DNA of 64,000 nt from Patescibacteria group bacterium (GCA_041666145.1 JBAYHK010000005.1:8921-72920), one strand, 5' to 3'. Shown: positions 1-62,108, counted from the first letter of the stretch. Made by a program: numbers and translations. Notes: generated by a model from the sequence alone, not told the origin.

Positions 1-474
1 AACTCCCATAGCAACGTTCATTGTAAGCACGATGACCATCGCCGGAATTGCCAATCGGTCAGGAATGATGCTCGCACGCCAATCAAACATGAAAATCGGC
101 AAAAGGAGCATTGCAAGAATTCCGTTGCGAATAAAGAGCGCAATAACATCAGAAGCGTCTCGAGCGAAAAACGGAATACTCACGTCGCCAGAAAAAATCT
201 GCCATGCAAAACCAACAAATAAAATTCCCATCGCTATCTCAAGTGCAGGATACTGCCATGGAATAATCGACTTACACGCTCGACATTTTGCCTGAAGCAC
301 AATGTAGCTCACTAAAGGAAAATGATCTTTTGCATGCATTGGCCTTGCGCAAGTCACACATTTCCTCCTTCCAGCGGTAAAACGTAAACCATCAGGCGTG
401 CGAAGAAGAAATGTATTTACAAGCGCGCCACATGCAAGCCCAAGAACAAGAGCAATACCTAGAGGAATCAACAT
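1..474 (-). CDS. pilD: Prepilin peptidase (A24 family), N-terminal ~158 aa. The ORF runs off the window start, so the 3' end is missing.
   Basis: Manual minus-strand translation from ATG at 472-474 gives MLIPLGIALVLGLACGALVNTFLLRTPDGLRFTAGRRKCVTCARPMHAKDHFPLVSYIVLQAKCRACKSIIPWQYP...FMFDWRASIIPDRLAIPAMVIVL with no stop before nt 1. It has the tetracysteine CxxC...CxxC motif and the D...IIPD catalytic-Asp region typical of prepilin peptidases. It is absent from the ORF track because it is open-ended. Confidence 0.7.
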   Translation of the reverse strand, partial: MLIPLGIALVLGLACGALVNTFLLRTPDGLRFTAGRRKCVTCARPMHAKDHFPLVSYIVLQAKCRACKSIIPWQYPALEIAMGILFVGFAWQIFSGDVSIPFFARDASDVIALFIRNGILAMLLLPIFMFDWRASIIPDRLAIPAMVIVLTMNVAMGV

Positions 475-2469: not shown

Positions 2470-2512
2470 AGTGCAAAAAGTATAACATGACAGTTGCAAA
2501 TATAACCCGCTA

Positions 2513-4837: not shown

Positions 4838-5467
4838 ATGGGCACAAAAGAAAAAAGGTTCGATCCTTCAAAATTCACTGTCGTCTTCGACAGAATAGAA
4901 CCAGGAATAGGAGAGATTGGGGTTTGTATCGCCGGAGAATGGGATCTCGGCAGTGAAAGCTTCGCCGTCCTCGACCACGAATTACTCACCTACACAAGAG
5001 CAAGTGACCAGTCACTAATCATACCGATTGACGACAAAAAGCTCGCAAAAGAGATTCTCACAATCGCAATCTCATTCTTCTTCATTTCCGAAGGAGACAT
5101 CGTCACAAGTAAAGAACAACCGATACGAACAGATATCGATGGAACAGAAATCTACACACTCAAGATTCCTGAGTATGGAAAAACCGAAGTGGAGTTCGCC
5201 GGCGCAATCGATATCGATGAGGTCATATACCAGCTGTGCTTCGCACGTCGCTCAAATCCTCTTGTCATCATCCTGGAAGTCACAGGAACAGATCCGATCG
5301 CATTCCGAGAAATAGATCTTAAGAACAGAGATCTTATCGAGGAGATCACTGAAGCCTTTCTTCTCGAAATGGGGATTGGAACTCCTGAGACGGAAGAGGA
5401 AGAGGAGTGCAAATCAAAGAAACCTGGCGTATCTGCATGGGTCCCGATCCTCGATCAAGAAAACTAA
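4838..5467 (+). CDS. Hypothetical acidic protein
   Basis: 209-aa ORF preceded by SD-like AAAGGGAGAG 7 nt upstream of ATG. Ends in a Glu-rich tail and is followed by a hairpin terminator. No family recognised. Confidence 0.45.
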   Translation: MGTKEKRFDPSKFTVVFDRIEPGIGEIGVCIAGEWDLGSESFAVLDHELLTYTRASDQSLIIPIDDKKLAKEILTIAISFFFISEGDIVTSKEQPIRTDIDGTEIYTLKIPEYGKTEVEFAGAIDIDEVIYQLCFARRSNPLVIILEVTGTDPIAFREIDLKNRDLIEEITEAFLLEMGIGTPETEEEEECKSKKPGVSAWVPILDQEN

Positions 5468-5481
5468 CGCAACGAACGAAA

Positions 5482-5504
5482 GAGCCGCTCCAAAAGAGCG
5501 GCTC
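5482..5504. terminator. Bidirectional intrinsic terminator between convergent genes
   Basis: gagccgctc-caaaa-gagcggctc, a 9-bp perfect stem. The minus-strand read is followed by tttcgttcgtt, downstream of the lepA stop. Confidence 0.5.
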
Positions 5505-5551
5505 AAAATGTTTATATACAATAAGCAAGGTAAACTTTTTTCGATTCATGA

Positions 5552-7360
5552 TTATCGCTTGAGTACTTTTAAATATGCTTCACTCGGAATCTCCACGCTT
5601 CCAACGCCCATTGCAAGCATTTTCTTCTTTCCTTTCTTCTGTTTTTCAAGCAGCTTCATCTTTCGTGTTGCGTCACCACCATAAAGTTTTGCCGTCACAT
5701 CTTTTCTCAACGCAGAAATACGCTCTCCAGCGACAACTTTTCCTCCAATAGTCGCCTGAAGCTTAATCACAAATTGCTGCTGAGGAATACTTTCCTTTAA
5801 AACTTCAAGAACTCGACGACCAACACGCTCAGCCTCGTCGCGATAAACAAGCATCGCAAATGCGTCGACAGGTTCATCCGCAACAAGAATGTCGAGCTTT
5901 ACAACATCAGCTTCTCTATACGTAAACACGTCATAACTCATGGACGCATAGCCACTTGAAGCACCTTTCAACTTATCATTAAAATCGACAATAATCGCAG
6001 AAAGCGGAAGCTCGTAATGCAATACAGCGCGGCCCTCAGAAAGATAATCTGTATTAACGTAAATACCTCGACGGTCTTGCGCTAACGACATGACGTTCCC
6101 AATAAACTCCGTTGGCGTAATCATGTCGACTCTTGCCCATGGCTCGTCAATATGATCAATAAAACTTGGGTCTGGAAGATCAAGAGCGCTTTTTACCACC
6201 GAATACTCAGGCTTTTCATTTACATAAACGTGATACGCCACGCTTGGGAGCGTTACCACAAGACCGATCGTAAATTCACGACTTAGCCGCTCTTTAAGAA
6301 TCTCCAAGTGGAGCATACCTAAAAATCCGCACCGGAATCCGTATCCAAGAGCTGGTGAGTGCTCAGGTTCAAATACAAGAGCGGAATCATTCAATTTCAA
6401 TCTATCCATCGCGTCACGCAACGCTCCGTACTCGTCACCTTGTGCTGGGAAGATTCCCGCAAACACCATGGGTCGAACCTCACGATACCCAGGCAATGCC
6501 TCGACATGATTCGTGATTGGCAAAACAGTCATGGTGTCACCCACTCGACATCCACGAATATCTTTCAAGCCAGTAACAACATATCCAATCTGTCCAGTCT
6601 CTAACTCGTCACGAGACGAAAACTTTGGCGTCAATGCACCAAGCTCGATAATCTCTCCATCTGCACCAGTCGCAAGCATCCGAATCTTGTCACGCCTCTT
6701 AAACACCCCATCCATAACTCGAACATACGCCACAACACCTTTATAGTCGTCATAAGACGAATCAAAAATCACAGCACGCGGCGCAGCATCAGCCTTCCCT
6801 TCTGGCGACGGAATAAGATCGATGACTCTATCAAGCAGCTCTCGCACACCCTCTCCTGTCTTTCCAGAAACAGCGAGAACATCTTCCGGAGCACATCCTA
6901 AAAGTTTCACGAGCTCCGCCTTTCGTGCTGGAACATCCGCAGCTGGAAGATCAATCTTGTTCAACACTGGAATAATCGCCAAATTTTCTTCCACTGCCAA
7001 ATACAAATTCGCAATCGTCTGAGCTTGAACTCCCTGCGTTGCGTCAACAAGCAGAATCGCTCCATTCACTGCAGCGAGCGAACGACTTACCTCGTAATTA
7101 AAATCGATATGACCAGGGGTATCGATGAGATTCAACGTGTACTCAACGTCACCCTTCTTCCAAATCATTCGAGCTGGAGCAAGCTTAATGGTTATTCCAC
7201 GTTCTCGCTCAATATCCATGGAATCCAAAAGCTGCTCCTTCATTAAGCGCTTGTCGACGGTTCCCGTAATCTCCAATAATCGATCTGAAAGCGTGGACTT
7301 TCCATGATCAATGTGGGCAATAATGCAGAAATTTCGAATGTTTTGTTGTAATACAGCCAT
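5552..7360 (-). CDS. lepA: Elongation factor 4 (LepA)
   Basis: NFCIIAHIDHGKSTLSDRLL G1 motif, 602 aa, LepA C-terminal domain. Confidence 0.9.
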   Translation of the reverse strand: MAVLQQNIRNFCIIAHIDHGKSTLSDRLLEITGTVDKRLMKEQLLDSMDIERERGITIKLAPARMIWKKGDVEYTLNLIDTPGHIDFNYEVSRSLAAVNGAILLVDATQGVQAQTIANLYLAVEENLAIIPVLNKIDLPAADVPARKAELVKLLGCAPEDVLAVSGKTGEGVRELLDRVIDLIPSPEGKADAAPRAVIFDSSYDDYKGVVAYVRVMDGVFKRRDKIRMLATGADGEIIELGALTPKFSSRDELETGQIGYVVTGLKDIRGCRVGDTMTVLPITNHVEALPGYREVRPMVFAGIFPAQGDEYGALRDAMDRLKLNDSALVFEPEHSPALGYGFRCGFLGMLHLEILKERLSREFTIGLVVTLPSVAYHVYVNEKPEYSVVKSALDLPDPSFIDHIDEPWARVDMITPTEFIGNVMSLAQDRRGIYVNTDYLSEGRAVLHYELPLSAIIVDFNDKLKGASSGYASMSYDVFTYREADVVKLDILVADEPVDAFAMLVYRDEAERVGRRVLEVLKESIPQQQFVIKLQATIGGKVVAGERISALRKDVTAKLYGGDATRKMKLLEKQKKGKKKMLAMGVGSVEIPSEAYLKVLKR

Positions 7361-7402
7361 AATCTGAAAGAAATCCTACTGTATTTTTACCAATCACGCA
7401 AT

Positions 7403-7431
7403 TGACTAAACATCCGTTTTCCGCTAATATA
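7403..7431 (+). promoter_or_regulatory. Sigma70-like promoter candidate (TTGACT, 17-nt spacer, TAATAT)
   Basis: ttgact at 7403-7408 and taatat at 7426-7431 with 17-nt spacing, ~70 nt upstream of the ORF starting at 7500. Confidence 0.45.
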
Positions 7432-7499
7432 AAACGTTTCTCGGCAAAAACACGAGAACAAAATTCAGAAAATTTTCACCACTTTATTCGAGGTTCATA

Positions 7500-8063
7500 A
7501 TGTTTGAAACACAAAGAAACTTAGAGTCCGACCTAGAAGACCTAGAAGACCTAGAAGACCTAGAAGACCTAGAAGACCTAGAACCGGATCCTATAAAAGA
7601 ACTGTACGCCGAACGGTTGCAGAAAGTTCGAGAGCTCCCGTTCTCCAACGTTCGAAAGCTCCTGTTCTCCGACGAGTTTACCCGCGATACTATCCCTAGA
7701 AAGATGCGGAATCTACCGCCACCACCCAGTAGAGAGATGGGGCTCATTGCGTGGACTGCGTATCGCGATGGACTCATCGAATTCGCGGAAGTACAGGGCT
7801 ATATCATCGGAAGACTCGTATCGCCTTCATGGAACACTCCCCTTGGTTTCGGGTTCGTAGCTGAAGGATATGTAGGAAAAAGAAAGATATCCTACATCGT
7901 TGGCAGACTGAAAAATAAGCTCGAACCGGAACCAGAATGTGGACAGCTCGTTCTTCTCACACGTGGATACGACAAATCTGAAGATCTACGAAAGACTAAC
8001 CAGCCCACCAGGCCTTACGAGCCAATCCCGAACTGGTTTGTAACCAAAGAGGAGGCTCGTTGA
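7500..8063 (+). CDS. Hypothetical protein with N-terminal (LED)n acidic repeat
   Basis: 187-aa ORF downstream of a consensus-like promoter. The N-terminus is encoded by a 9-nt microsatellite. No family recognised. Confidence 0.5.
   Translation: MFETQRNLESDLEDLEDLEDLEDLEDLEPDPIKELYAERLQKVRELPFSNVRKLLFSDEFTRDTIPRKMRNLPPPPSREMGLIAWTAYRDGLIEFAEVQGYIIGRLVSPSWNTPLGFGFVAEGYVGKRKISYIVGRLKNKLEPEPECGQLVLLTRGYDKSEDLRKTNQPTRPYEPIPNWFVTKEEAR
7532..7583 (+). repeat. Perfect 9-nt tandem repeat (cctagaaga) x5.8 encoding LEDLEDLEDLEDLEDLE
   Basis: Read directly: cctagaaga repeated head-to-tail, in-frame inside ORF 7500..8063. Confidence 0.85.
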
Positions 8064-8116
8064 ACACAAAAAAACACGATCCCCTGTTGCCACGATCGGC
8101 CACGGGGGATTTGCTT

Positions 8117-8689
8117 TTAAAAGCCCATTGTAAGATTCACCGCTTCCTTTGCTTGAACTGGAGTGAAGTTCACCGGAATCAGTCGACGTTCACCAGATCG
8201 ATCGTCGTACAAAACGTAACCATTTTTTAACCCAAATTCGTACACTTCTTTTGTCACCTTCACGTCTTGTAAGCAATACTCACGAATCTCATCTATCTTC
8301 CCCTCCTTCCACCAAGCAACTGCCTGAAGACCGTGACTCGATTTCCTCGTTCCAACCGTTGCCGCGGCAACATCATCAAGCTTTATTCGGTATCCTAATG
8401 ACTTTTCAATGTGTTGCAAAATGTCGAGCTGCTGAAGCTTGAGCAAATCTCCGGCGTAATAATTGTTTAAAACAGGCATGTCAAAACCGATTGAATTGTA
8501 TCCAATAATTCGGCCACCAACTTCAAGTTTTGCAAACATCTGCGGCAAATCTTTTTCTAAATACGACTCGTAGGTATCTGTTTCGTAGTAATACACGCCA
8601 ACAAGAGAAACTTTCAGTTTATCTGTAAAATACCCACCAACTTCCTCAAAAGTATTCTGTGTTTCAATGTCTAAAACAATATCGTTCAT
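8117..8689 (-). CDS. DEDDh-type 3'-5' exonuclease (DnaQ-like fold)
   Basis: VLDIETQNT (Exo I), IGYNSIGFDMPVL (Exo II), HGLQAVAWW...EYCLQDV (Exo III, H-x4-D). Confidence 0.65.
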   Translation of the reverse strand: MNDIVLDIETQNTFEEVGGYFTDKLKVSLVGVYYYETDTYESYLEKDLPQMFAKLEVGGRIIGYNSIGFDMPVLNNYYAGDLLKLQQLDILQHIEKSLGYRIKLDDVAAATVGTRKSSHGLQAVAWWKEGKIDEIREYCLQDVKVTKEVYEFGLKNGYVLYDDRSGERRLIPVNFTPVQAKEAVNLTMGF

Positions 8690-8749
8690 AAAAACATTTC
8701 ATCGCAAAAAGTATTCGCATCCTATCGAATATAACCGTCAACTTCCACC

Positions 8750-9610
8750 CTACCATCCACATCGAACAGCGATACCTGTTGGAAGTTCAAAGGCACGCAC
8801 CGATTCTTCCTTTAACGTAAGCTCAACAGACTGAATCTCTGTTTTCCAAGAAATCGAGGTGCGAAGAAGATTTTCAATCGAGAGTGCCGGAAATCCGAGT
8901 GAATACGCGTTGACAAGAAGCAACCCCGAATTCTTATTTAACAACTTTGCGCAATCAGTAAGCAATTCAGGAAGATGATCCTCGAACTGCCAAAGCTCTC
9001 CCTCTGGACCGCGTCCAAATGCGGGAGGATCCATAAAAATTGCATCATACATATTGCCTCTACGGATCTCTCTTGCAACAAACTTTTGAGCGTCGTCAAC
9101 AATCCAACGTATCGGCCTTTCTGAAAGTCCCGACAAGTCTGCGTTCTCTTTTCCCCATGTCACAACAGGCTTGCTTGCATCAAGATGCGTAACATCCGCG
9201 CCAACACTTGCAGCAACAAGCGTTGCCGCACCGGTATATCCAAACATATTCAAAACTTTCATTCCAGGCTTTACATTCTCTCGAATCCAAACCCAGTTAT
9301 TCGCCTGCTCAGGAAACAATCCCGTGTGCTTAAATGATGTTGGACGGATACGAAACGTCAAATCTTCCCAATGAATATTCCAAGACTCTGGAACTTTTTT
9401 ATTGATAGTCCATTCACCTTCTCTACCCTGCCGTTTATACGAGAGATGAGAGTCATTCCAAGCCTCTTCATTTTCTTTTTTCCAAAGCGCCTGCGGCTCG
9501 GGACGAATCATAATAACGTCACCAAAACGTTCACGTTTTTCAAATGCCCCAGAATCAAGAAGTGCAAACTCTCGCCACTCTGCACAAGATCGAACAAGAG
9601 GCAATGACAT
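8750..9610 (-). CDS. Class I SAM-dependent (r)RNA methyltransferase, RlmI/YwbD-like without PUA domain
   Basis: LNMFGYTGAATLVAA (motif I), DAIFMDPPAFGRG (motif IV DPPxF). Confidence 0.6.
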   Translation of the reverse strand: MSLPLVRSCAEWREFALLDSGAFEKRERFGDVIMIRPEPQALWKKENEEAWNDSHLSYKRQGREGEWTINKKVPESWNIHWEDLTFRIRPTSFKHTGLFPEQANNWVWIRENVKPGMKVLNMFGYTGAATLVAASVGADVTHLDASKPVVTWGKENADLSGLSERPIRWIVDDAQKFVAREIRRGNMYDAIFMDPPAFGRGPEGELWQFEDHLPELLTDCAKLLNKNSGLLLVNAYSLGFPALSIENLLRTSISWKTEIQSVELTLKEESVRAFELPTGIAVRCGW

Positions 9611-10406: not shown

Positions 10407-12365
10407 TTAATCATCAAAATGGATGTGCTCTCCTGGAGCAACTGGCATAGGCACGGCACTAACGGTCGTTGCCGCAACAACTGGATCCTTACGTTCCGCG
10501 GTAACATCGGGTGAATACACTTTCGGTCCTTTAAAGGCTTCCACTTGTTTTCTTTGCCGATACGGCTTCTTTTTTGTAAAAGATTCTGAACCAACAGATG
10601 CAACCACCGGTCGAGGAACGAAAACCTTCTGCTGAATTAATGAAGGTGTCTGTTGTTTGGATACTAAAGGAACAGTGGAGGCATTCTCTTCGTGTCGATG
10701 AGGCTCTGTAAAAACAGAACGGGACGGAAGATTGTTCAAAGAAACCTCCCCGGAAGTTGGAATGACAATCGCCTCTCCATCCTTTGGCGTTGGTGGAGGA
10801 TAGTATTTTTCACCTGGTCTCGGCGTTCGCACGGAAACATTTTTCTCCCCCTTCTTCTTCCGTTCTTCGACGATTAACGTATGACAATCATCACAATAAA
10901 TTGGACGAGTTCTATCTAGTTCTACTGGAAGAGAAAACTTCTTTCCGCAACGCGCACAGTCATACTCGTGTCCAAATCGAGCCCTTTTCGCTTCCTTCTT
11001 TTCTGCAGAAATTTTTGCAAACTCAGCTCCAACATCAAGATTCTGATCAAAACCGCTCCAAGTCATCACTCTTTCTTCAATCATTTTTCGATTTCCTCCG
11101 AATCGTTCACGAGATTGCTGAACAACCTTTTCCTCACTTCCTGTTCGCTGTGCTATCGGCGGAAGTGTTAATGCAGAAAATGGCTGGCTCGTAACACCAT
11201 CAATCATTAACTTTAAATAAATTCCATACTTTGGAAGGTTGATCAAATCTTCTGGCGTAAATCTTGGCATGAATTCACTTTCCATGAATTCAGCGTCTTT
11301 TGCACCAATACGAAATGTAATCAAGCTCCCCACATTTCCGAATACCGCGTCACGAACAGCAGTAGAAGTTAAACTATCGAGTTGCGCAATATACTGATGA
11401 GCAATAATGAGATTCAACCTATATTTCCGAGCCTCAGAAAGAATGTCCGCAAATGACTCTGTGGCAAAATTCTGAAATTCATCAACATACAGATAGAAAT
11501 CCTGTCGATCATTCTCGTTACGAATGTTCACACGCTCCATTGCAGACATGTAAATTTTCGTGATGATCATTCCGCCTAAAATGCGCATGGCATCTTCTCC
11601 AATCTGACCTTTGGAAAGATTAATGAGAAGAATTTTTTTATCGTCCATGATCTCACGGAAACTAAAAGCGGACTTTGATTGTGCAACAATATTGCGCATC
11701 ATTGTTGATGCCAAAAATTGTCCAACCTTGTTTTGAATTGGCGCAGAAGCCTCGGCAGCAAACTTTACATCATACATGGCAAATTCCTTAAGCCAGAAGG
11801 CCTGAACCATCGGATCTTTTACATTTTGAACAATCTCTGCCCTATATTCCTTGTCTGAAAGCATGCGATTGATTCCAAGCAATGTTGTTCCTGGAGTATC
11901 AAGAAGCGCGAGAATCGTATATTGCAAAATGTATTCCATGCGAGCGCTCCAAACGTTCTCCCATACCTTTTTAAAAATCGAAAGAAGACTGTACATCACC
12001 TTTGAGTTGTAATCATTCACAAGCTCCCATCCCTCTGTCTTCTCTAACATGTTAAACGCAATTGGAAAGTCACTATCTGCAGGATTGAAATACACAACAT
12101 CATTAATTCGCCAGGAGGGAATGTAATCAAGCATTTTACTTACAGTATCGCCATGTGGATCGATATAACAACATCCATGACCAGCATAGATGTCGGCTAA
12201 AATCATATTCTCAAGCAACGTAGTCTTCCCCATTCCAGTCTTTCCGACCATGTATATATGACGACGACGATCGTCTGTCTTAATACCAAATCTTCGCATG
12301 CCATTGCGAAAATTTGTTTGGCCAAAGTAGATAATATCCTTCTCGTGATCATGTTCGTATCTCAT
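10407..12365 (-). CDS. VirD4/TraG-like (FtsK-HerA superfamily) P-loop ATPase with a C-terminal zinc ribbon and Pro-rich tail
   Basis: GKTGMGKTT Walker A followed by CCYIDPHGD (DPxGD box of coupling proteins), LYVDEFQNF Walker B, IAHQYIAQL. C-terminal part has CARCGKKF...YCDDCH then a low-complexity Pro-rich tail. Confidence 0.6.
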   Translation of the reverse strand: MRYEHDHEKDIIYFGQTNFRNGMRRFGIKTDDRRRHIYMVGKTGMGKTTLLENMILADIYAGHGCCYIDPHGDTVSKMLDYIPSWRINDVVYFNPADSDFPIAFNMLEKTEGWELVNDYNSKVMYSLLSIFKKVWENVWSARMEYILQYTILALLDTPGTTLLGINRMLSDKEYRAEIVQNVKDPMVQAFWLKEFAMYDVKFAAEASAPIQNKVGQFLASTMMRNIVAQSKSAFSFREIMDDKKILLINLSKGQIGEDAMRILGGMIITKIYMSAMERVNIRNENDRQDFYLYVDEFQNFATESFADILSEARKYRLNLIIAHQYIAQLDSLTSTAVRDAVFGNVGSLITFRIGAKDAEFMESEFMPRFTPEDLINLPKYGIYLKLMIDGVTSQPFSALTLPPIAQRTGSEEKVVQQSRERFGGNRKMIEERVMTWSGFDQNLDVGAEFAKISAEKKEAKRARFGHEYDCARCGKKFSLPVELDRTRPIYCDDCHTLIVEERKKKGEKNVSVRTPRPGEKYYPPPTPKDGEAIVIPTSGEVSLNNLPSRSVFTEPHRHEENASTVPLVSKQQTPSLIQQKVFVPRPVVASVGSESFTKKKPYRQRKQVEAFKGPKVYSPDVTAERKDPVVAATTVSAVPMPVAPGEHIHFDD

Positions 12366-12371
12366 ACGATG

Positions 12372-13889
12372 CTATATTGGAAGATTCGGAGGAACATCGC
12401 TCTCTCGAATAGCAGCCGGCATTATCTGTTCTACATTCGCATGCTCCGTTGGAGATGTTGGAGTCGGCAAGAGTAGCTCAGATTCTGGAAGAGATCTGAC
12501 ACGCTCCTCTTCTTTTGTCTCTTCAATAGTTCGTTTCCAATTTGGGAGCTGAGGATCTTCTTTACTAGCAAAACTCAATGTATCCGGCGCCTCTGCACGA
12601 CGCGCCCCTACGTTACTCAATACTGGAGTTCTCGCATCAGCTGCCGGAAAATGAAACAACGTAGCCAACTCTTCAACATTCATATACAACCAGTCAGCCC
12701 CCTCTCCTCCACTTCTCCGCTTATAACGAGAAACTAATTTTCGTTGCTTACCCGCCATCTGCCATTCCTGCCAAATGTAATCATTTTTTGGTACAGAAGG
12801 TGCAAAAAGTCCCAAACGATTCATGTATTGATGATTGAATGTCGCAAACATACCCTTAGCAGAACTCGCCATAAGTCCCCGACTAAACTTCTTTTTTGGA
12901 CCTGAAGAAACCCAGCGGATTTTCGTCTTCCATGTTACCTTGGAAATTTTTTCTGCAACTGCATCCATTATGAGACGTTCATGCGAGGTCATTCGAAACA
13001 TACGAAAGTCATCTTTCTTTTCCTCATGAGCCGCTTCACCAAAACCAACCCCCGCTACCTGAGTCAGGATACCCTTAGGCAACCAAAGGACATTTTCAGC
13101 TAATGCACCAAATGCACTGGGTTTTTGCTTCTTCTCTTTACCCATCATGGCATTCAAATATTCAGCACCCTCTTTTACAAGCGTCTGACTATCTGGTGGC
13201 TGAATGATGATCTGAATCCAAAAATATTCTCTCTCCTTCATTTTCCCCAAAAACTCAATAATTGGTAGCAATGGATCTTTAAAACGAAAATCCTTCTCTC
13301 CTTGGTGCTCAAATTCTTTGTATGTTCGAATTGGAAAATAAGATTTTTCAGCGAATACCATTTCACTTCCAAAAACTTCAAACTCTTCATTTGGATATTC
13401 ATTCGGCAATACATCTACATAGTCATCTACTTCTATAATCTGTGCCTCGGGATATTGCGCATACAAAGCAGCCTCAACCAAATCACGATATTTATCAATA
13501 GTGCGAATTAAAAATCGAACATTCCCCTCACTTCCAACGATCTCAAGACTAAAAAAAGATTGAAATTTCCCGATCAGCCAGACTTCTCTCCAAGTAATCG
13601 CAGACTTCACACCGGAAATATTCATGAAAAAATTCTCCATGCCCTTCGGGGTATTGATCGCATCCTGAGGAACACGAATTTCTAATAACTGCCATCGCAA
13701 TGCAGCATTATATTTTCCTTGTTTATAATCCATCCAGATATGCGTCAAGCCCCAGATAATAACACCAAAAATTGGAATCCACCCGACCACGAGCAAGGCT
13801 TGAGCCGCAATAAGTGGCAGAGGAGTTGTATTTATGTAATGTAAAACTGTCGTTGGAAGCGAAATGGCAATACCAAGCATAGATAACAA
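12372..13889 (-). CDS. Membrane protein (2 N-terminal TM helices plus ~430-aa soluble domain), partner of the VirD4-like ATPase
   Basis: 505 aa. Hydrophobic helices at residues ~10-50, no recognisable catalytic motif. A 6-nt gap to the downstream ATPase gene implies one operon. Confidence 0.45.
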   Translation of the reverse strand: MLSMLGIAISLPTTVLHYINTTPLPLIAAQALLVVGWIPIFGVIIWGLTHIWMDYKQGKYNAALRWQLLEIRVPQDAINTPKGMENFFMNISGVKSAITWREVWLIGKFQSFFSLEIVGSEGNVRFLIRTIDKYRDLVEAALYAQYPEAQIIEVDDYVDVLPNEYPNEEFEVFGSEMVFAEKSYFPIRTYKEFEHQGEKDFRFKDPLLPIIEFLGKMKEREYFWIQIIIQPPDSQTLVKEGAEYLNAMMGKEKKQKPSAFGALAENVLWLPKGILTQVAGVGFGEAAHEEKKDDFRMFRMTSHERLIMDAVAEKISKVTWKTKIRWVSSGPKKKFSRGLMASSAKGMFATFNHQYMNRLGLFAPSVPKNDYIWQEWQMAGKQRKLVSRYKRRSGGEGADWLYMNVEELATLFHFPAADARTPVLSNVGARRAEAPDTLSFASKEDPQLPNWKRTIEETKEEERVRSLPESELLLPTPTSPTEHANVEQIMPAAIRESDVPPNLPI

Positions 13890-13980: not shown

Positions 13981-14880
13981 TTATGCACGATTCGCTCTCC
14001 ATCTTTCCCATTCAACCAAAAGCGGGCTCGCAATAAAAATCGATGAATACGCACCGGAAACTAAACCAATCATCAGTGCTAAAACGAAAGGTCTTGTAGT
14101 CTCACCACCAACCAAGAAAACAGCGAACAACGGAAGGAATGAAGAGAATGTTGTATTCAATGAACGAGCGAGCGTTTCCATTATGCTTGAATTCACAATG
14201 TCTCCAAATGACATGTCACTATGTCTACGACGAAGAAGATTTTCGCGAGTTCGATCAAGGACAACGATCGTGTCATTAATGGAGTATCCAAGAATCGTCA
14301 AAACCGCAGCCACGAAGGCCATGTCAACTTGATATCCAAAATAATGGCCCAAGACCGCAAAAACACCCAACGGAATCATCACATCGTGAAATGCGGCAAT
14401 CATAGTAACTACCCCATATTTCCATGAGGCAACTGGGTGTGTGACCTTACGAAACGCCCAAGCAACGTAAACAAGAATAAGAATGAGCATCAGTACCGAT
14501 GCAGATATGGATGCGCTTCGTAACTCATCACCAATCACAGGGCCAACCGTATCAAAGCGGATCTCTTTCGCGTCTACAGAAAGAGCTCTTACTATTGAAA
14601 GAATCATCTGGTGCTGTTCTTCAGTTACTGGCGCCAATCGAACAAAATATGTGTCGCCTTCGCCCTGCTGCACAACCGATTCAAAACCACCGGCTGTTGC
14701 CGCTTCACGGATCGCGCTCACCGATGTTCCAGGCGCTGAAATCTGCATCAAGCTACCACCGGTAAAATCAATACCAAAATTCAGACCGTACGCCAAAAGT
14801 GCACCAAATGCGAGAACAACAATAGCGACAGATATCGCGAGCCAAAGCTTAGACTTTCCAATAATGTTTATAGGTTTCAT
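13981..14880 (-). CDS. secF: Protein translocase subunit SecF
   Basis: N-terminal TM then GIDFTGGSLMQI SecF signature. Six-TM RND-like C-terminal half. Confidence 0.9.
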   Translation of the reverse strand: MKPINIIGKSKLWLAISVAIVVLAFGALLAYGLNFGIDFTGGSLMQISAPGTSVSAIREAATAGGFESVVQQGEGDTYFVRLAPVTEEQHQMILSIVRALSVDAKEIRFDTVGPVIGDELRSASISASVLMLILILVYVAWAFRKVTHPVASWKYGVVTMIAAFHDVMIPLGVFAVLGHYFGYQVDMAFVAAVLTILGYSINDTIVVLDRTRENLLRRRHSDMSFGDIVNSSIMETLARSLNTTFSSFLPLFAVFLVGGETTRPFVLALMIGLVSGAYSSIFIASPLLVEWERWRANRA

Positions 14881-30250: not shown

Positions 30251-31651
30251 TTAATCCAAAAAAGCCAAAGCCGCTTCCTCATCCTTTTCAACGAAGATTT
30301 CAACGGCTCGCTTTGCTTTTTCAAGTAGGACTTTTGCTTGTTTACGTAGTTGCAAAGCTTCTAACACCTTGTTTGCAAGTTCTTCTTGTTTTGCATCTGC
30401 GAGCATTGGTATTTTGACCTGCATAGCACTTTCTGGCTTCAAGTGAGCGATAATCGCGCCTCCTGACATTCGCTCAATCTGAGTTTTGCAGTAGAAAGAG
30501 TTGAGGACCAATGCAAGGTAGTTGTTGTTTATCTTTACCTTCGGTTTAAGGCGCAGAAACGCACCACTCATAATTGCATCAACATCCTCATTGAGAGCAA
30601 ACGAAATGCCGATTGTGCCATCTTTTGTGAACAAAACTTCGCCCTTGTTTGGCTTATAGTTTTCCTTCAATCCTTCGTACAACTCTTCTGAAATTTTCTT
30701 CTCAACATCCTCTATGCCGTAGATAGTAAAATCAGAAACACGAATGAAATCTTTCCCTTCTTCTGCATACGCTTCGCTTCCAACTTCAACGCCTTTCTTT
30801 ACTGAAACGATGTCGCCAAGTTTCTCTTGTTGAACTTTTGATACTCTCTTAGTTATCTCATCGTATTTTGGTTGCCAATACTCGGCATCAAAGCGACTGT
30901 CTGCTAACGCTTCGCTAAAGTTTCGGACCGAGATAGTTTCTTCAGTGCCTTTGTAGCCCTCAAGATTGATTTCTTTAAGAAGCATCTGTTCAGCTTCTCT
31001 GTACACGTTCTCGCTCGCTGTTTTCTTTTCGTACGCATCCAAGATAAGCTTCTGAACAGTATTCTCAATCTGTTTTTTGGGTTGTACAATCTTCAGTTCT
31101 TCAAGAATAGTTAGGTTTATGTGTCCCTGAACACCCCCACTTGCAAACCTCATCAACTGAAAACGCCCATACATTGAGTTTAAGAAAGCAGTTAGGTAAA
31201 ACGGGCTTACGTTTTCTTTTGAACGGATAATAATGATATCGGCAGAGTTTGTCTTTTCATCTTCAAGGTAAACTGAAGCGTTGCCAAAAGAACCACTGCG
31301 AGCAATCAAAATGTCGTTCTTAGACACTTGTGATTTTTTGAGCTTTTTATGAAAATCATCGTTTATCCTTTGACATTCTGCTACATCTACAAAAAACTCT
31401 TTCACATTTCGTGTTTGCAATAGTAAAACCCCTTTATCATCGTACTCAGATACCATTGAGCCAACAAAGCCCACATCTATTTTTTCTGAAAGCTCTCCTA
31501 GTAACTCAACATCTTTTCTTTCATTGATTAAGCTATCAAGAGCTACAAAATGAGGGTCGTAATACTCAGCATCAAGACGACCAACTAAATCACTGTAGTT
31601 TATTACCGAGATTGCGAGGTTGTTTTCTTTTGTAATCGTTTGCCAAGACAT
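30251..31651 (-). CDS. hsdS: Type I restriction-modification specificity subunit HsdS (two target-recognition domains)
   Basis: Duplicated TRD architecture with conserved spacer helices. It lies immediately downstream of hsdM with a 2-nt gap. Confidence 0.8.
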   Translation of the reverse strand: MSWQTITKENNLAISVINYSDLVGRLDAEYYDPHFVALDSLINERKDVELLGELSEKIDVGFVGSMVSEYDDKGVLLLQTRNVKEFFVDVAECQRINDDFHKKLKKSQVSKNDILIARSGSFGNASVYLEDEKTNSADIIIIRSKENVSPFYLTAFLNSMYGRFQLMRFASGGVQGHINLTILEELKIVQPKKQIENTVQKLILDAYEKKTASENVYREAEQMLLKEINLEGYKGTEETISVRNFSEALADSRFDAEYWQPKYDEITKRVSKVQQEKLGDIVSVKKGVEVGSEAYAEEGKDFIRVSDFTIYGIEDVEKKISEELYEGLKENYKPNKGEVLFTKDGTIGISFALNEDVDAIMSGAFLRLKPKVKINNNYLALVLNSFYCKTQIERMSGGAIIAHLKPESAMQVKIPMLADAKQEELANKVLEALQLRKQAKVLLEKAKRAVEIFVEKDEEAALAFLD

Positions 31652-31653
31652 AG

Positions 31654-33591
31654 TTATTTCAAGAAGCTAAGACCTTGCTCTTTACCCCAAGCAACAAAGG
31701 CTTGAGCGATTTCATCGAGGTCGCTTAGATACTCGGGATTGCCATTTTCATCCTTCACGGCTTGTCCTTCTTCGTCTTTCTCAAAAATATAATCACCACT
31801 ATTATCTTTGAATGATTGCTTTTGTGTGGCAAAGAAAATAGGATAATCTTTTACAGTCGAACTTCCACCAGCATCTACTTCATTTTCATTCCACTTCTGC
31901 AAGAAAATAACAGAGGTCTTTGTGCCTGTGTGTGGCTTAAACGAATTACCGTGTAGCCCTACAACCGCCAAGATACGAGCCTTTTGCATTATGTATTTAC
32001 GAACATATTCCTCACTTGTGTTATTAAAAATACCCTGCGGAAGTACGACAGCAAGCCTACCTCCTGCTTTTACAAAATCAAGGTTCTTCTCAATGAAAAG
32101 CAAATGTCTGTCTACTGATTTTTGCATTTTGCCTTTGGCGTTTTTACCGAGAACATATTGCGAGAGAAGGTGTTTTTCTTTTACCTCACCCGCAAAAGGG
32201 GGGTTAGCAAGCAAAACATCAAATTCTAACTCTTTTAAGGAATCTAGATTATCAAAATATTTCGTGTTGTCATCAAAGTATTTTACAAGATCGAGTTCTC
32301 TTAGTTCGCTTTTAAACTTTTCAGGCCACTCTTTGGTATCAAGTGAGGTGGTTTTGTAGATATGACTTTTGCCGTCGCCAGCAATAACCATAATTGCACG
32401 ACTTATCTTTGTTGATTTTTCGTCAAAATCTATACCGAACAAGTATCGCATCGCATACTCTTTCATTCCTGCTTTTGAAAGGTTATCGTTTCTAGCAACA
32501 TACTGCATTGCATGTACCAAGAACCCAGCACTACCGCACGCTGTATCTATGACATATTCTTTTTTCTTTGGGTTCATCATTTGCACACACATATCAATCA
32601 CAATACGAGGCGTAAAGTATTGACCTTTCTTGCCTTTGGCTACATCAGGGAGCAGGTATTCAAAGGCCTCGTCGATGATGCGGAGATTGGAGCCGAACAA
32701 GCGTACGTCCTGTAATTCACCGACACAGATAGAGAGATGTTCAGGCGATAGCTTGATTCTGTCAGTCCTCTCAAAGATTTCAGGCCATTCTTTTTTTGCG
32801 TCCTCAAATAAATCGTCAATTACTTTTTTTGTATCCTCAGGCTTGCCATTAGGACTCTTTCTGAAATAGAGCTCTTCGCCATTGCGAGAAATGGCCTCCT
32901 TTTCGTCGTAGAGCTTTGAATAGATGAGTTTAAATATCTCATCAAAGCTATCAAAACCGGATTGAGCAAGTACCAATTCTTCAAGTGTTGTAATAATTAT
33001 CTTAAGATCTTGTTCATGCAGATCTTTAAGAACCTTTCGTTTTTGAAGAACATCGGAAACATCTTCTCCGTATGCGGGTATTTGATCTAAAGTATCAAAA
33101 TCCTTTGGATACGGACGGAACAATATCAACTGATACTTGCCATTAAGCGCAACACCAATCGGCGAACCCTCTGCATTCAAATATGACTTTAACTGCTGAA
33201 TATCATTCTCGACATTTGGCGCTTTGACTTCGATAATCATCTTTATCGTTTGCCAAGTTTCGTTTGTATACACGACAATATCAGCTCGTTTATTGTCATT
33301 TTTCTCACGACCAAACTGCACGATCTTTTCAAGTTCGATGTGTGCCTTTGGATACTTGTACTTCTTTGTAAGTTCTAAAAGGTAAAGCTGACGAACAATT
33401 TCCTCGGGCGCAGATTTACCCGTCTTTTCATTGTAGACAAGTTTTTCTTCCTCTAATCTCGAAATAGATTTTACGTAATACTTACCCTCCTCCTTTTGAT
33501 ATATTTCAATCTTGGCCAAATCATCGAACATTAGAAGATCCTGTTCGGGATTTTTAAAGATTTTACTTAAAATCTGCTGAGTTATGGTCAT
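31654..33591 (-). CDS. hsdM: Type I restriction-modification N6-adenine DNA methyltransferase HsdM
   Basis: VIDTACGSAGFLV (motif I), VLLANPPFAG (NPPF motif IV), N-terminal HsdM_N-like region. Confidence 0.9.
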   Translation of the reverse strand: MTITQQILSKIFKNPEQDLLMFDDLAKIEIYQKEEGKYYVKSISRLEEEKLVYNEKTGKSAPEEIVRQLYLLELTKKYKYPKAHIELEKIVQFGREKNDNKRADIVVYTNETWQTIKMIIEVKAPNVENDIQQLKSYLNAEGSPIGVALNGKYQLILFRPYPKDFDTLDQIPAYGEDVSDVLQKRKVLKDLHEQDLKIIITTLEELVLAQSGFDSFDEIFKLIYSKLYDEKEAISRNGEELYFRKSPNGKPEDTKKVIDDLFEDAKKEWPEIFERTDRIKLSPEHLSICVGELQDVRLFGSNLRIIDEAFEYLLPDVAKGKKGQYFTPRIVIDMCVQMMNPKKKEYVIDTACGSAGFLVHAMQYVARNDNLSKAGMKEYAMRYLFGIDFDEKSTKISRAIMVIAGDGKSHIYKTTSLDTKEWPEKFKSELRELDLVKYFDDNTKYFDNLDSLKELEFDVLLANPPFAGEVKEKHLLSQYVLGKNAKGKMQKSVDRHLLFIEKNLDFVKAGGRLAVVLPQGIFNNTSEEYVRKYIMQKARILAVVGLHGNSFKPHTGTKTSVIFLQKWNENEVDAGGSSTVKDYPIFFATQKQSFKDNSGDYIFEKDEEGQAVKDENGNPEYLSDLDEIAQAFVAWGKEQGLSFLK

Positions 33592-47417: not shown

Positions 47418-47514
47418 ATTGAATGGACTGAGGATAGCGCCGCCATCTCCTTCTTGCCAGAGCCGTCCCGCACATGATACGATTTTCGCGCATTATTCAA
47501 TGCCTTTACACCAT

Positions 47515-47591
47515 GCCGGTGTAGCTCAGATGGTTAGAGCGGCGGTTTTGTAAACCGCAGGTCGTCGGTTCGATTCCGACCCCCGGCTCCA
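47515..47591 (+). tRNA. tRNA-Thr (anticodon UGU), CCA encoded
   Basis: Hand-folded cloverleaf. Acceptor gccggtg/ccccggc (one mismatch), D-arm tagctcagatggttagagc, anticodon stem gcggt/accgc with loop ttTGTaa, T-arm ggttcgattcc, 3' tCCA. Confidence 0.85.
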
Positions 47592-47647
47592 CTTTTCACT
47601 ACTTTTGAACTTCAAGAAACTGGTCAGGAGATAAAAATGTAACGAGT

Positions 47648-47774
47648 GTAAGACGGAACGATTTGAGACTATTTTCGGTGCGGAGCTAGGAAAGCTCGCG
47701 AAACGTACTTCTTGGTACGTTGAGCGAGTTTCCGACGCGACAAACCGAAAAGAGGCCAAATCGTTCCGTCTTAC
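47648..47774 (+). repeat. Structured 127-nt module closed by a 17-bp perfect inverted repeat, abutting the 5' end of tRNA-Tyr
   Basis: gtaagacggaacgattt (47648-47664) pairs with aaatcgttccgtcttac (47758-47774). Inner 8-bp IR ttttcggt/accgaaaa and hairpins gagct-aggaa-agctc and acgtac-ttcttg-gtacgt. Confidence 0.5.
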
Positions 47775-47776
47775 CA

Positions 47777-47861
47777 GGGTTGGTACTCAAGCGGTCAACG
47801 AGGGCAGACTGTAAATCTGCTGGGCTTCCCTACGAAGGTTCGAATCCTTCCCAACCCACCA
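47777..47861 (+). tRNA. tRNA-Tyr (anticodon GUA), long variable arm, CCA encoded
   Basis: Acceptor gggttgg/ccaaccc perfect, anticodon stem gcaga/tctgc with loop ctGTAaa, long variable arm tgggcttccctacga, T-arm gaaggttcgaatccttc, discriminator a then CCA. Confidence 0.85.
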
Positions 47862-47863
47862 CA

Positions 47864-47987
47864 TAAAATCCAATAAAATTGTCCGTAGTGTTGTCACCTC
47901 CTGCGTGCGGCCCTCTCCGTACGGCAAAGTACGAATTCGGGCCGTACTCGTCGGCTCCTAGCTACAAACAATTTTATTGGATTTTAT
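47864..47987. repeat. Structured 124-nt module closed by a 20-bp perfect AT-rich inverted repeat, abutting the 3' end of tRNA-Tyr (MITE-like)
   Basis: ataaaatccaataaaattgt (47864-47883) pairs with acaattttattggattttat (47968-47987). Interior has gtacggc...gccgtac hairpin and GAATTC palindrome. Confidence 0.5.
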
Positions 47988-48423
47988 TCACTCGTTCTCG
48001 TTTTGCTAAAAACCGATACAAGACAAGTGCAAAATGAATTAAGCTTGGTCAGATTCTCAGAGCGAGTAGTTCATAAGTCCTATTGGTCTTATAGGACCTA
48101 TGAGCGAGCGACGACGAAGCTGGTCAAACTTGGATACCTTTTGCCCAGTGCAACATTTGCTAAGTTTGTTTACTGCTAGGAGCCACGAGGACCGAAGCGA
48201 GACGTACTTCACAGTACATTGAGCGAGGACCACAGTGGCGACACGACAAGAAACAAGTCAAGTGCAGAAATAATTAAGTTTGTTTAAATGCAAGGCGGAG
48301 CGAGGACGGTTACGACGTCTCCGGCTAAGCCGGATCCGGCTTCGCCGGAAAGACGTACTTCACGGTACGTCGTCGATCGCCCGCAGCGACAACGCCGCAG
48401 TTAAACAAACTTGGATTATTTCT
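47988..48423. repeat. Non-coding region with a degenerate ~200-bp tandem duplication and recurring hairpin modules, ending at tRNA-Thr(GGU)
   Basis: Direct repeats acaagacaagtgcaaaatgaattaagcttgg (48018-48048) and acaagaaacaagtcaagtgcagaaataattaagtttg (48244-48281). Recurring tgagcgag and gacgtacttcacNgtac hairpins. 12-bp IR taagtttgtttaa (48275-48287) / ttaaacaaactt (48401-48412). Confidence 0.45.
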
Positions 48424-48499
48424 GCCGCGGTAGCTCAGCTGGTAGAGCGCATCCATGGTAAGGATGAGGTCTCGGGTTCGATTCCCGACCGTGGCTCCA
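48424..48499 (+). tRNA. tRNA-Thr (anticodon GGU), CCA encoded
   Basis: Acceptor gccgcgg/ccgtggc (one G-U), D-arm tagctcagctggtagagc, anticodon stem catcc/ggatg with loop atGGTaa, T-arm tcgggttcgattcccga, tCCA. Confidence 0.85.
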
Positions 48500-48546
48500 A
48501 AAATCCCTCGCATTGTGCGAGGGATTTTTGATTGCATACACCGATA

Positions 48547-60977: not shown

Positions 60978-61814
60978 TTAATCTAATTGTACCGCAAGTT
61001 CAGTAAACGCAATTAATGGATTTGCATTTGCCGCGATTCGCTCACGTGTTTTTAAGACTGCATGAAGTCCCTTTGCAGAAGCACGATTCGACATATGAAG
61101 TTCCTGTATGAGCGCAATAAAAAGCGACTCAAAATCCTTTAACTCTTGCTTCGCGATATCTTGAGCGGCTTTCAAACGTTCAACTCCCGAACAAGACACA
61201 AGTCGTTTTGCATTCAACAGAATGTCTTCAGATGCCGCTGAAGATACTCCAAAAAATGAAAGGGTCACTGCACGAGATCGAATAGTGGGAAGCAATGCAG
61301 ATTCTTCGTGGGAAATAAGCACAATAACAGTTCCAGCATTTGGCTCTTCTAACATCTTCAATAACGCATTCTGACTTGCCGTGTTCAACACATTTGCATC
61401 ATCAATAATCACAACTGCCTTCCCAGAAATCGACGATTGCCCTAACCGATGAAGAACGTCGCGGATGCTTTCAATGTCATATGCCCTTGTTCCATTCTCA
61501 CGAACTTCTGGAGAAAGCGAAATAAAATCTGGATGACGAAAAAGTTCATTCAAATCTACACGGAGAAAAGCCGATGCAAACTGCTTGGCTACTGTAGATT
61601 TCCCAATATGTTCAGGACCACAAAACGCAAAAACTCCATTTTCTGCTCCAGAAATAATAAAACGCTCCAAAACTGATATTTGGCGTTTATGGCCTAAGAT
61701 TTGCGAAAAATTCGCATGCATAAGGTTGACACTTTCGTACTTTTTTGGTATTGTACTTGGTTCGCTCCGCAACGGGAAACCCATGCATCCAAGGACGAAC
61801 AACCTCGTGGTCAC
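60978..61814 (-). CDS. holB: DNA polymerase III delta-prime subunit-like AAA+ protein
   Basis: FAFCGPEHIGKSTVAKQ Walker A-like, VVIIDDANVL, SRAVTL sensor region. 278 aa. Confidence 0.7.
   Translation of the reverse strand: MTTRLFVLGCMGFPLRSEPSTIPKKYESVNLMHANFSQILGHKRQISVLERFIISGAENGVFAFCGPEHIGKSTVAKQFASAFLRVDLNELFRHPDFISLSPEVRENGTRAYDIESIRDVLHRLGQSSISGKAVVIIDDANVLNTASQNALLKMLEEPNAGTVIVLISHEESALLPTIRSRAVTLSFFGVSSAASEDILLNAKRLVSCSGVERLKAAQDIAKQELKDFESLFIALIQELHMSNRASAKGLHAVLKTRERIAANANPLIAFTELAVQLD
61726..61754 (+). promoter_or_regulatory. Sigma70-like promoter candidate (TTGACA, 17-nt spacer, TATTGT) antisense inside the 5' end of holB
   Basis: ttgaca at 61726-61731 and tattgt at 61749-61754. 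It would transcribe the GC-rich 61.76-62.10 kb region that ends at a plus-strand-oriented terminator. Confidence 0.3.
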
Positions 61815-62078
61815 TGTCGTTTTTTCTATAACGAAACATCACACGTTCTCAAAAAAACAAGAAATCGTAACTTGAAAGCATTTAGAGAGACTTCGTTCTC
61901 TCTGCTGCTCTGGAGGAGAGAGATGGATCTACTCCGTGGGCAACACCATGCCGTAGATCCGACGCGCCAGCGGACGTATGGGCTTCGGCTCACCCGTTCC
62001 ACAGAGGTGCGTCATGGCACACATCAACTTCGGCTGATCACTATGCCCGATCACCTCCAGGACATTATAGAGAACACC

Positions 62079-62108
62079 AAGCGCCCAATAGGGCGCTTTT
62101 GGTTTTCT
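62079..62108 (+). terminator. Intrinsic terminator oriented for the plus strand
   Basis: aagcgccc-aata-gggcgctt (8-bp stem) followed by ttggttttct. The minus-strand read lacks a T-tract. Confidence 0.55.

Follow-up and report, generated by a model that had tools for sequence, protein, structure and literature searches.

In bacteria of the Candidate Phyla Radiation (CPR), or Patescibacteria, the genome measures about 1 Mb and non-coding DNA is almost absent. The locus described here raises the question of what an 830-nt block of non-coding hairpins is doing inside a transfer RNA (tRNA) operon of such a genome, in which gene packing is tight. The operon occupies positions 47515-48530 on the + strand of a 64,000-nt stretch of a Patescibacteria group bacterium (GCA_041666145.1 JBAYHK010000005.1:8921-72920), the whole of which is called the window below, and consists of three tRNA genes with hairpin modules filling the spacers. 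These modules probably belong to a family of interspersed palindromic repeats that are co-transcribed with the tRNAs and removed during processing. The family is best read as a non-coding element of about 125 nt from one clade of CPR/Patescibacteria, comparable in kind to MITEs (transposable elements of miniature size with inverted repeats), ERIC sequences, Rickettsia palindromic elements (RPEs) and Correia elements. The kind of element is known; new are the family, the phylum, the crowding into spacers of tRNA and ribosomal RNA (rRNA) genes, and the exceptionally clean covariation. Full-text literature searches on such repeats returned no description in CPR bacteria.

Five homologous modules in one tRNA operon

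The initial annotation placed the tRNA-Tyr gene between two modules, each closed by a perfect inverted repeat, and this arrangement was confirmed. The repeat of module A measures 18 bp instead of the 17 first reported, with arms at 47648-47665 and 47757-47774 that end 2 nt before tRNA-Tyr. That of module B measures 20 bp, and its AT-rich arms (47863-47882 and 47968-47987) extend to 26 nt at 92% complementarity; the module starts 1 nt past the CCA of the tRNA. The operon contains five homologous hairpin modules of about 115-165 nt, of which A, C, D and E share the orientation of the tRNAs and B is inverted, together with two arm fragments. The reverse complement of module B aligns with all other modules in MAFFT and has GCTAGGAGCC, ACGAG, CGTACTTnnnnGTAC and GGTGACAAC in common with module D. 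With nhmmer, a profile of all five copies recovered each module (E values 1e-17 to 1e-24) and gave no other match in the window. The covariance model built from the family matches module B on the - strand only, and scores module A at 139 bits on the + strand against 67 bits on the - strand. The apical hairpin ACGTACTTCNNGGTACGT is common to A, D and E (three occurrences against 0.22 expected by chance), GAGCGAG is found 3' of the apex in A, C and D, the 3' side of the core has recurrent motifs of the GCGACA type, and AGTG occupies the 5' flank position in all five copies. Module C is the most diverged of these copies, with a replaced apical hairpin and G.U pairs in its outer stem.

Only nine inverted repeats (15 nt or longer, within 250 nt) were counted in the whole window, and five of them fall in this 1-kb operon. 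The fold check proposed with the initial annotation showed that the spacers fold far better than shuffled sequences (z about -8.4 to -9): the z-score is -8.4 for the spacer with module A and about -8.9, on either strand, for the 562-nt spacer after tRNA-Tyr that holds modules B-E. Module A and its junction with tRNA-Tyr recur, 100% identical, in an assembly made independently from another sample (Logan SRR6484324, L082). The independent short-read assemblies L082, L083 and L088, from the same species or a 91%-identical relative, are broken at or just before the tRNA operon, as expected where repeats interrupt assembly.

The modules of the window appear to differ in age. Module A has orthologues at the same position in L098 and L093, and antisense orthologues of module B with the same ATAAAATTG outer stem occur in L091 and L098. 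Orthologues of module E stop 2-3 nt short of tRNA-Thr(GGU) in L091, L098 and L096; in the window, the stem base of module E overlaps the first 2 nt of this tRNA. Positions A, B and E are old and occur in related species too. Modules C, D and E are head-to-tail units, each opening with AGTGCA. The leader fragment CAAGAAACTGGTCA is similar to the 3' arm found in modules C and D; the fragment in the spacer after module B corresponds to module D at its 3' end, together with the unit junction AAGTGCA. The head-to-tail units and the 3'-arm fragments point to local tandem duplication, and C and D look like local tandem duplicates of an E-type unit. The proposal of a paired insertion on both sides of the tRNA was abandoned in favour of three separately conserved positions (A, B and E) with local duplicates. 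An 8-bp inverted pair thought to enclose A, tRNA-Tyr and B (aacgagtg at 47641-47648, cactcgtt at 47989-47996) is present but does not form a separate bracket. Its left member AACGAGTG is the 5' flank of module A, and its right member CACTCGTT falls within a spacer motif that contains TTCAC and comes after the B position in every operon compared in this clade except that of L089 (five of six).

Copies in related genomes

The covariance model search covered 1.46 Mb, made up of the window and 91 loci, which are cited by L numbers. Contigs of related species were located through homologues of the adjacent DedA protein. The copy search suggested by the initial annotation was productive: 17 further distinct copies were found in related metagenomic contigs, which brings the total to 22 at about 10 independent sites. 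A metagenome scan with a core pattern fitting A, D and E returned four contigs, all four of which were confirmed by nhmmer.

The orthologous operons differ in their content. In L098 (= L099) the order is Thr, A (sense), Tyr, B (antisense), E (sense), Thr, and one copy is found elsewhere, between dnaB and ybaB. The operon of L091 (= L092) reads Thr, Tyr, B (antisense), E (sense), Thr, with copies elsewhere, one upstream of rplU and one of a DUF6938 gene. L093 (= L094) has Thr, A, Tyr and a short hairpin, its tRNA-Thr(GGU) being truncated by an integrase island, and no copies were found elsewhere in this locus. L096 (= L097) has Tyr, Thr, E, Thr, with copies in the trmB-holB and dnaB-ybaB spacers. 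The operons of L095 and L089 are compact and without copies; the former locus carries copies in the same two spacers as L096, and none were found elsewhere in the latter. One further copy stops 5 nt upstream of a tRNA-Leu(UAG) gene in the same orientation (L084, duplicate L087), one lies in the 23S-5S spacer antisense to the rRNAs (L086, rRNAs confirmed with Rfam), and one stands at a contig end with a 17-bp perfect outer stem (L085). The sites are heterogeneous, and many copies are not next to tRNAs. All are intergenic or in spacers, in both orientations, and about seven of the ten independent sites are in the sense of local transcription. Where copies adjoin tRNAs, the gap between hairpin and tRNA is steady at 2-5 nt in several species.

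In about 80 loci of other CPR lineages the covariance model found no copies, apart from two marginal matches in L013, a more distant CPR lineage with a DnaB 53% identical. These matches, at 13036-13130 (+) and 2393-2488 (-) with E = 0.02-0.03, are two copies of a related-looking hairpin repeat, both with the core GAGGCGUA-loop-UACGCCGA and the common 5' flank AGGACTTACGCA, which suggests a wider superfamily. In a genome-collection scan with DnaB (80 CPR loci), the synteny of the tRNA operon was lost, and a Thr-Tyr-Thr operon was present only in L030, without copies of the family. In a phage collection, blastn matched the tRNA-Tyr itself and none of the modules. Of two pattern scans of viral sequences, the first gave no matches and the second four, one of which (L104, IMG/VR UViG 2888060440_000003) looks like a true member. 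This likely member, at 3-122 (-) with 28 bits, contains GAGACGTAC...GTACGTTGAGC and GCAGCAACGC. It is situated at the end of a stored contig stretch that encodes phage tail and tape-measure-like proteins, and could mark a prophage border beside host DNA or be borne by the phage. No module matched the E. coli collection (5,426 genomes) in blastn, and identity with ERIC/IRU was rejected on this result. The Rfam check recommended earlier assigned the modules to no family. With Rfam 15, only tRNAs reached the gathering score in the window, and only rRNA and tRNA did so in the related loci. At E up to 10, the weak matches were far below gathering, the best one over a module being a plant microRNA precursor (26.6 against 180 bits).

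Filled and empty sites

Several sites are filled in some genomes and empty in others. The leader of rplU carries a copy in L091 and none in L090; the remaining alignment is near-identical, and the difference of about 130 nt includes the whole outer stem. The dnaB-ybaB spacer is empty in the window and in L088 and filled in L095, L096 and L098. In the Tyr-Thr spacer of L089, a 33-nt hairpin, AGAAAAGCTCG-GCAA-CGAGCTTTTCT, has the sequence of the B copy's outermost stem in the sister genome L091 and most likely represents a B copy with an internal deletion. Short hairpins with the B outer-stem sequence stand at the place of B in both L089 and L093. Internal deletion is favoured by the sharing of inner sequence between B-type copies of two subclades and by the absence of the outer stem from the empty rplU site. 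The filled and empty sites may have arisen by deletion instead of insertion.

The dnaB-ybaB spacers also contain other, unrelated hairpin-forming insertions, in L098 at 10950-11120 (about 160 nt) and in L093 at 14640-14734 (about 60 nt). Palindromic inserts accumulate repeatedly at this intergenic site.

Secondary structure, polarity and constraint

All 22 copies adopt the long-hairpin fold. The A-type alignment (12 copies) gives a consensus hairpin of 43 pairs, with double compensatory changes in 29. Cells of this alignment pair in 93.2% of cases, against 72.8% after shuffling (none of 500 shuffles reached the observed value) and 37-42% when the partner columns were slid, and the covariation score is 0.54 against 0.18. 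Among the six E-type copies, compensatory changes are found in 14 of 42 pairs, and one U.G pair is kept in five of the six. The secondary structure is backed by covariation beyond the shuffle controls, with a signal among the clearest that can be obtained from about 20 sequences; the test applies to RNA and single-stranded DNA alike and cannot separate them.

The core and the apical hairpin are the most conserved parts, and the termini are variable; the sequence of the outermost stem is common within subfamilies only and not throughout the family. The family has a subterminal motif CATTTGAG...CCAAATG and an apical ACGTAC hairpin, with a conserved G.U pair at the base of the apical stem and a loop that reads UUCNYG. 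The GA-rich strands on both sides of the apical stem could form tandem G.A pairs.

The hairpins have a strand polarity. In 19 of the 22 copies the fold is better on the family strand than on its complement, often by 10-20 kcal/mol, stem oppositions of the G.U type outnumber those of the A.C type (60 vs 31), and the covariance-model score is about twice as high on the family strand as on the opposite one. The same polarity is present in copies antisense to local transcription, namely module B in the window, L091 and L098 and the copy of L086. A link between polarity and the replication strand was ruled out by copies within one locus that point both ways.

A comparison of L091 with L098 gives a measure of constraint. 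Identity is 100% for the tRNAs, 96% for the E copy (two changes from U.G to C-G) and 90% for the B copy (three compensatory pairs); in the 50-nt stretch of spacer from B to E it is only about 50%, with indels. An identity so far above that of the adjoining spacer indicates that the copies, sense and antisense, are constrained or homogenised.

Relation to known repeats and mobile elements

The suggestion that the modules are MITEs was borne out in part: they form a multi-copy, non-coding palindromic family with filled and empty sites. MITEs are shorter than 200 bp and lack coding capacity (PMC2229807), and the modules agree with this, having lengths of 114-163 nt and the substitution pattern of a nucleic-acid hairpin and not of codons. 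They also resemble MITEs in the dispersal of copies (PMC2229807), the 22 copies being spread over about 10 independent sites of related genomes. Another property of MITEs, orthologous sites that are filled in some genomes and empty in others (PMC2229807), was observed at rplU, in the dnaB-ybaB spacer and in the tRNA operon spacers.

Other findings weigh against an interspersed mobile repeat. All five copies in 71 kb of the source genome, which comprise the window and about 7 kb beyond it without further copies, are in the tRNA operon, so that dispersal within the genome was not seen. MITEs have family-wide terminal inverted repeats that match an insertion sequence (PMC2229807); here long terminal inverted repeats are present in every copy, but copies have their sequence in common only when they belong to one subfamily, and neither an insertion sequence nor a longer autonomous element with matching ends was seen. 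No target-site duplication could be demonstrated in the copies found; the rplU pair of L091 and L090, in which the flanks have diverged, is compatible with duplication of TA, and TA stands at both ends in about half of the copies. The 58 open reading frames (ORFs) of the window include no transposase, integrase or HUH gene. The conservation of orthologous copies above their flanking spacers is unexpected for individual selfish inserts. The better fold of the antisense module B on the non-transcribed strand is not explained by a pure processing-hairpin model.

Among described families, ERIC/IRU (127 bp) offers a close likeness, being a non-coding imperfect palindrome of similar length (about 125 nt here) that is found in both orientations in transcribed intergenic regions and whose transcript forms one long stem-loop. 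For ERIC in Yersinia, effects on RNA decay are reported to depend on its orientation (PMC2229807). Unlike ERIC, which shares no sequence similarity with them, as judged by blastn against the E. coli genomes, and occurs in a different phylum, the modules have much longer, perfect outer stems and abut tRNAs and rRNAs; RNase E, which is invoked for ERIC, is not known to apply to them. RPEs, compared here by description, are likewise palindromic repeats (105-146 bp) of a reduced genome that are tied to stable-RNA genes, and have been reported inside the genes of tmRNA and RNase P RNA (PMC2229807). They differ in that they also occur in frame within protein-coding genes, whereas all copies of the present family are intergenic or in spacers, and a relationship in sequence is not expected. 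The Correia/NEMIS elements of Neisseria are MITE-sized palindromes co-transcribed with neighbouring genes, and RNase III acts on their hairpins by binding or cutting (PMC2229807, PMC2649163), which provides a precedent for the processing step proposed below. Correia elements have a family-wide terminal repeat of 24-26 bp, a TA duplication and an IHF site, in contrast to the subfamily-specific termini of the modules.

The rtT repeats of the E. coli tyrT operon (RtT RNA in Rfam) are non-tRNA units that arose by local duplication and are released by tRNA processing. The modules resemble them as repeated non-tRNA units within a tRNA-Tyr operon; rtT units, in contrast, are not known to be long hairpins or to be dispersed in the genome, and the modules gave no Rfam match even at E up to 10. 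The intervening sequences of rRNA are sporadic hairpins of about 100-150 nt located inside 23S rRNA helices and excised by RNase III. Copies of the present family differ in lying in spacers and messenger RNA (mRNA) leaders, and none were found inside the partial 23S genes of L084 and L086.

Several other classes were considered and rejected. REP/REPIN elements, which consist of 20-40-bp REP units with a GTAG or CGTC tag in inverted doublets and are mobilised by a RAYT gene product, are at variance with the lack of a family-wide tag, with a conserved unit that comprises the whole hairpin of about 125 nt, and with the absence of a Y1 transposase from the window. In integron attC sites the ends, which bear the R''/R' core sites (RYYYAAC / GTTRRRY), are conserved and the core is variable, the opposite of what is seen here; in addition, attC sites go with intervening cassettes and an integron integrase, whereas the units abut each other or tRNAs without cassettes, and the window has no integrase. 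No defining features of retrons, riboswitches or ribozymes were found in the modules.

Proposed processing and rival explanations

One promoter-like site and one terminator-type hairpin surround the modules, which lie 1-5 nt from the tRNAs, and this arrangement would place the modules in the pre-tRNA. Promoter, tRNAs, modules and terminator apparently form one transcription unit. Within the pre-tRNA, the copies would form hairpins in which stems run uninterrupted for up to 20 bp. RNase P would cut at the 5' ends of the tRNAs, 2-5 nt from the hairpin bases, and 3' trimming of the tRNAs together with, probably, RNase III cleavage of the stems would release and destroy the hairpins. Such removal would explain why hairpins are tolerated in stable-RNA spacers. 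The family would spread as a non-autonomous mobile element, and some hairpins may have been co-opted for processing or insulation.

The structured-RNA alternative, which had been proposed beside the MITE, agrees with conservation above the spacer level, compensatory changes and strand polarity, as it predicted; the polarity of module B on the non-transcribed strand is left unexplained by it. In its strongest form the hairpin is a cis-acting RNA selected by the host, either for processing, insulation or stabilisation (e.g., as an RNase III entry site) or for protein binding, with mobility secondary or absent. The element would have been multiplied by duplication and retained for its usefulness in separating pre-tRNAs, pre-rRNAs and intercistronic mRNAs. 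This explanation is possible and takes much of the weight left by the interspersed repeat, with which it is not mutually exclusive. Besides strong covariation and polarity, it accounts for the conserved irregularities (the G.U pair at the apical base, the GA-rich strands and the UUCNYG loop), for orthologous copies that are 90-96% identical beside spacers at about 50%, for the steady gap to tRNA ends across several species and for the excess of sense sites. It is less easily reconciled with the sister genomes L089 and L095, whose compact operons manage without a hairpin, with the heterogeneous contexts, and with the antisense B copies of three species and the 23S-5S copy, all of which keep G.U pairs and family motifs on the non-transcribed strand. 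A new CPR-specific structured nucleic-acid element, with a strand-specific function independent of the host transcript, is rather unlikely. In one version of this idea, RNA or single-stranded DNA hairpins would be bound by a dedicated protein and excised by the tRNA-processing machinery from a tRNA-punctuated hairpin array; in another, a hairpin-based mobile element would home to the ends of stable-RNA genes. Either version would account for purifying selection on sense and antisense copies, for the conserved loops and G.U pairs, and for the constant 2-5-nt gap to tRNAs.

It is doubtful that the hairpins are small RNAs freed from a tRNA-punctuated array to act in trans or bound to protein. The tandem array between tRNAs and the conserved loops and internal loops would suit such RNAs, and cleavage by RNase P would leave a 2-5-nt 3' tail on each sense hairpin, but many copies are away from tRNAs or antisense, no conserved single-stranded seed-like region was found in them, and sister genomes lack the family. 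Slightly less probable still is a derivative of a single-strand DNA transposon, such as a miniature of IS200/IS605 or a REPIN-like element, of which a Y1/HUH transposase would recognise an internal hairpin on one strand. Since single-strand transposition predicts neither family-wide terminal repeats nor target-site duplications, and a polarity independent of transcription, the conserved apical hairpin with variable termini, the lack of a clear target-site duplication and the polarity kept in copies antisense to transcription all fit. Against it, no Y1 or RAYT gene is found in the window or in the fetched loci with listed gene calls, the copies read have no GTAG/CGTC-type tag and no conserved flanking cleavage motif, copies in one locus point both ways and so do not follow the replication strand, and the whole of about 125 nt is conserved as a single hairpin instead of two sub-terminal ones. 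That the modules are chance palindromic spacer or an assembly artefact has only the breakage of Logan assemblies inside the operon in its favour and can be regarded as refuted by the 22 homologous copies across independent samples and assemblies, by the covariation in homologous loci and by the identical module A of the second dataset.

If the interspersed-repeat family is selfish, stable-RNA spacers may be safe havens for mobile DNA in streamlined genomes, and the assembly breaks at these operons are explained. If it is functional, it represents a novel structured element linked with the maturation of tRNA and rRNA in a large uncultured branch of bacteria. In both cases, the covariance model built here could be used for annotating the elements and for avoiding spurious ORF calls over hairpins. 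Public gene callers have placed a 70-aa ORF (L081 4881-5093) and a 66-aa ORF (L091 8803-9003) over hairpin repeats; neither has a Pfam hit on record, and both are almost certainly spurious.

Operon organisation and genomic context

The features of the operon are listed in Table 1. The CATGATACGATT motif of the promoter-like site is kept upstream of the orthologous operons in L089, L091, L093 and L098, and a hairpin at the terminator position is also present in orthologous operons. A simple terminator scan gave no call for the hairpin at 48498-48530. A minus-strand promoter for module B was rejected, the match being weak and without an equivalent -35/-10 pair in the L091 sequence.

Table 1. Positions in the window of the tRNA operon features, in order of occurrence.
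Feature	Position	Strand	Description
Promoter-like site	47454..47483	+	TTGCCA, 18-nt spacer, TG-n-TACGAT (extended -10)
tRNA-Thr(UGU)	47515..47591	+	
Leader spacer	47592..47647	+	arm fragment 47613-47626 (CAAGAAACTGGTCA) and AGTG flank of module A
Module A	47648..47774	+	subtype A; 18-bp perfect outer stem; apical hairpin ACGTACTTCTTGGTACGT at 47703-47720
tRNA-Tyr(GUA)	47777..47861	+	
Module B	47863..47987	-	same family reversed, antisense to the tRNA transcript; 20-bp perfect outer stem
Spacer	47988..48028	+	conserved TTCAC motif and arm fragment 48015-48030
Module C	48029..48144	+	subtype E, sense; nhmmer E = 1e-17
Module D	48147..48260	+	subtype E, sense; truncated 3' arm; apical hairpin 48202-48219
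Module E	48264..48425	+	subtype E, sense; nested 43-nt hairpin insertion 48310-48352; apical hairpin 48353-48370
tRNA-Thr(GGU)	48424..48499	+	
Terminator-type hairpin	48498..48530	+	A-tract, GC stem, T-tract; 15-bp perfect inverted repeat

The operon is preceded by dnaB, ybaB, recR and a divergent DedA/VTT gene and followed by RibD_C, CotH, DUF4956 and VTC genes. In ENA, the source contig is ERZ27249449 k141_1192588, of 314 kb. The 58 ORFs of the window comprise housekeeping genes and a type I restriction-modification island. Its DnaB is at most 69% identical to metagenome-assembled genomes labelled Uhrbacteria, Parcubacteria or Patescibacteria, and this similarity identifies the window as part of a CPR chromosome. 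GC skew on the + strand is negative across the whole window (1-64000), and 49 of the 58 ORFs are on the - strand. Given this skew, the tRNA operon and dnaB-ybaB-recR, which are on the + strand, are apparently head-on to replication.

The closest relative found is L093, whose tRNA-Tyr is identical to that of the window. After its truncated tRNA-Thr(GGU), at about 4900-9600, it carries an island with a tyrosine integrase, Fic and helix-turn-helix genes, together with a diversity-generating retroelement (RVT_1 plus bAvd).

On the minus strand of the window, the spacer from a TrmB-like gene to holB (61814-62107) consists of about 290 nt of non-coding sequence with a small terminator-like hairpin. 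A long-range inverted repeat, GTTCTCTATAATGTCCTGGAGG ... CCTCCAGAGCAGCAGAGAGAAC, surrounds about 140 nt, and the enclosed sequence is conserved in L095 and L096; Rfam gave no match on this spacer at E up to 1. The hairpin copy in the trmB-holB spacer lies just outside the left repeat arm in L095 and just outside the right arm, in opposite orientation, in L096. The junction of copy followed by CCGTTCTCTC is identical relative to the repeat arm in both loci. This spacer may hold a structured RNA that lacks annotation, or provide a context favoured for insertion.

In a low-GC stretch of the window (30251-33591, 0.395-0.40) lie genes for a methylase and for a type I/IIG-like restriction-modification specificity subunit; those for a PD-(D/E)XK nuclease and a YgjP-like peptidase adjoin it.

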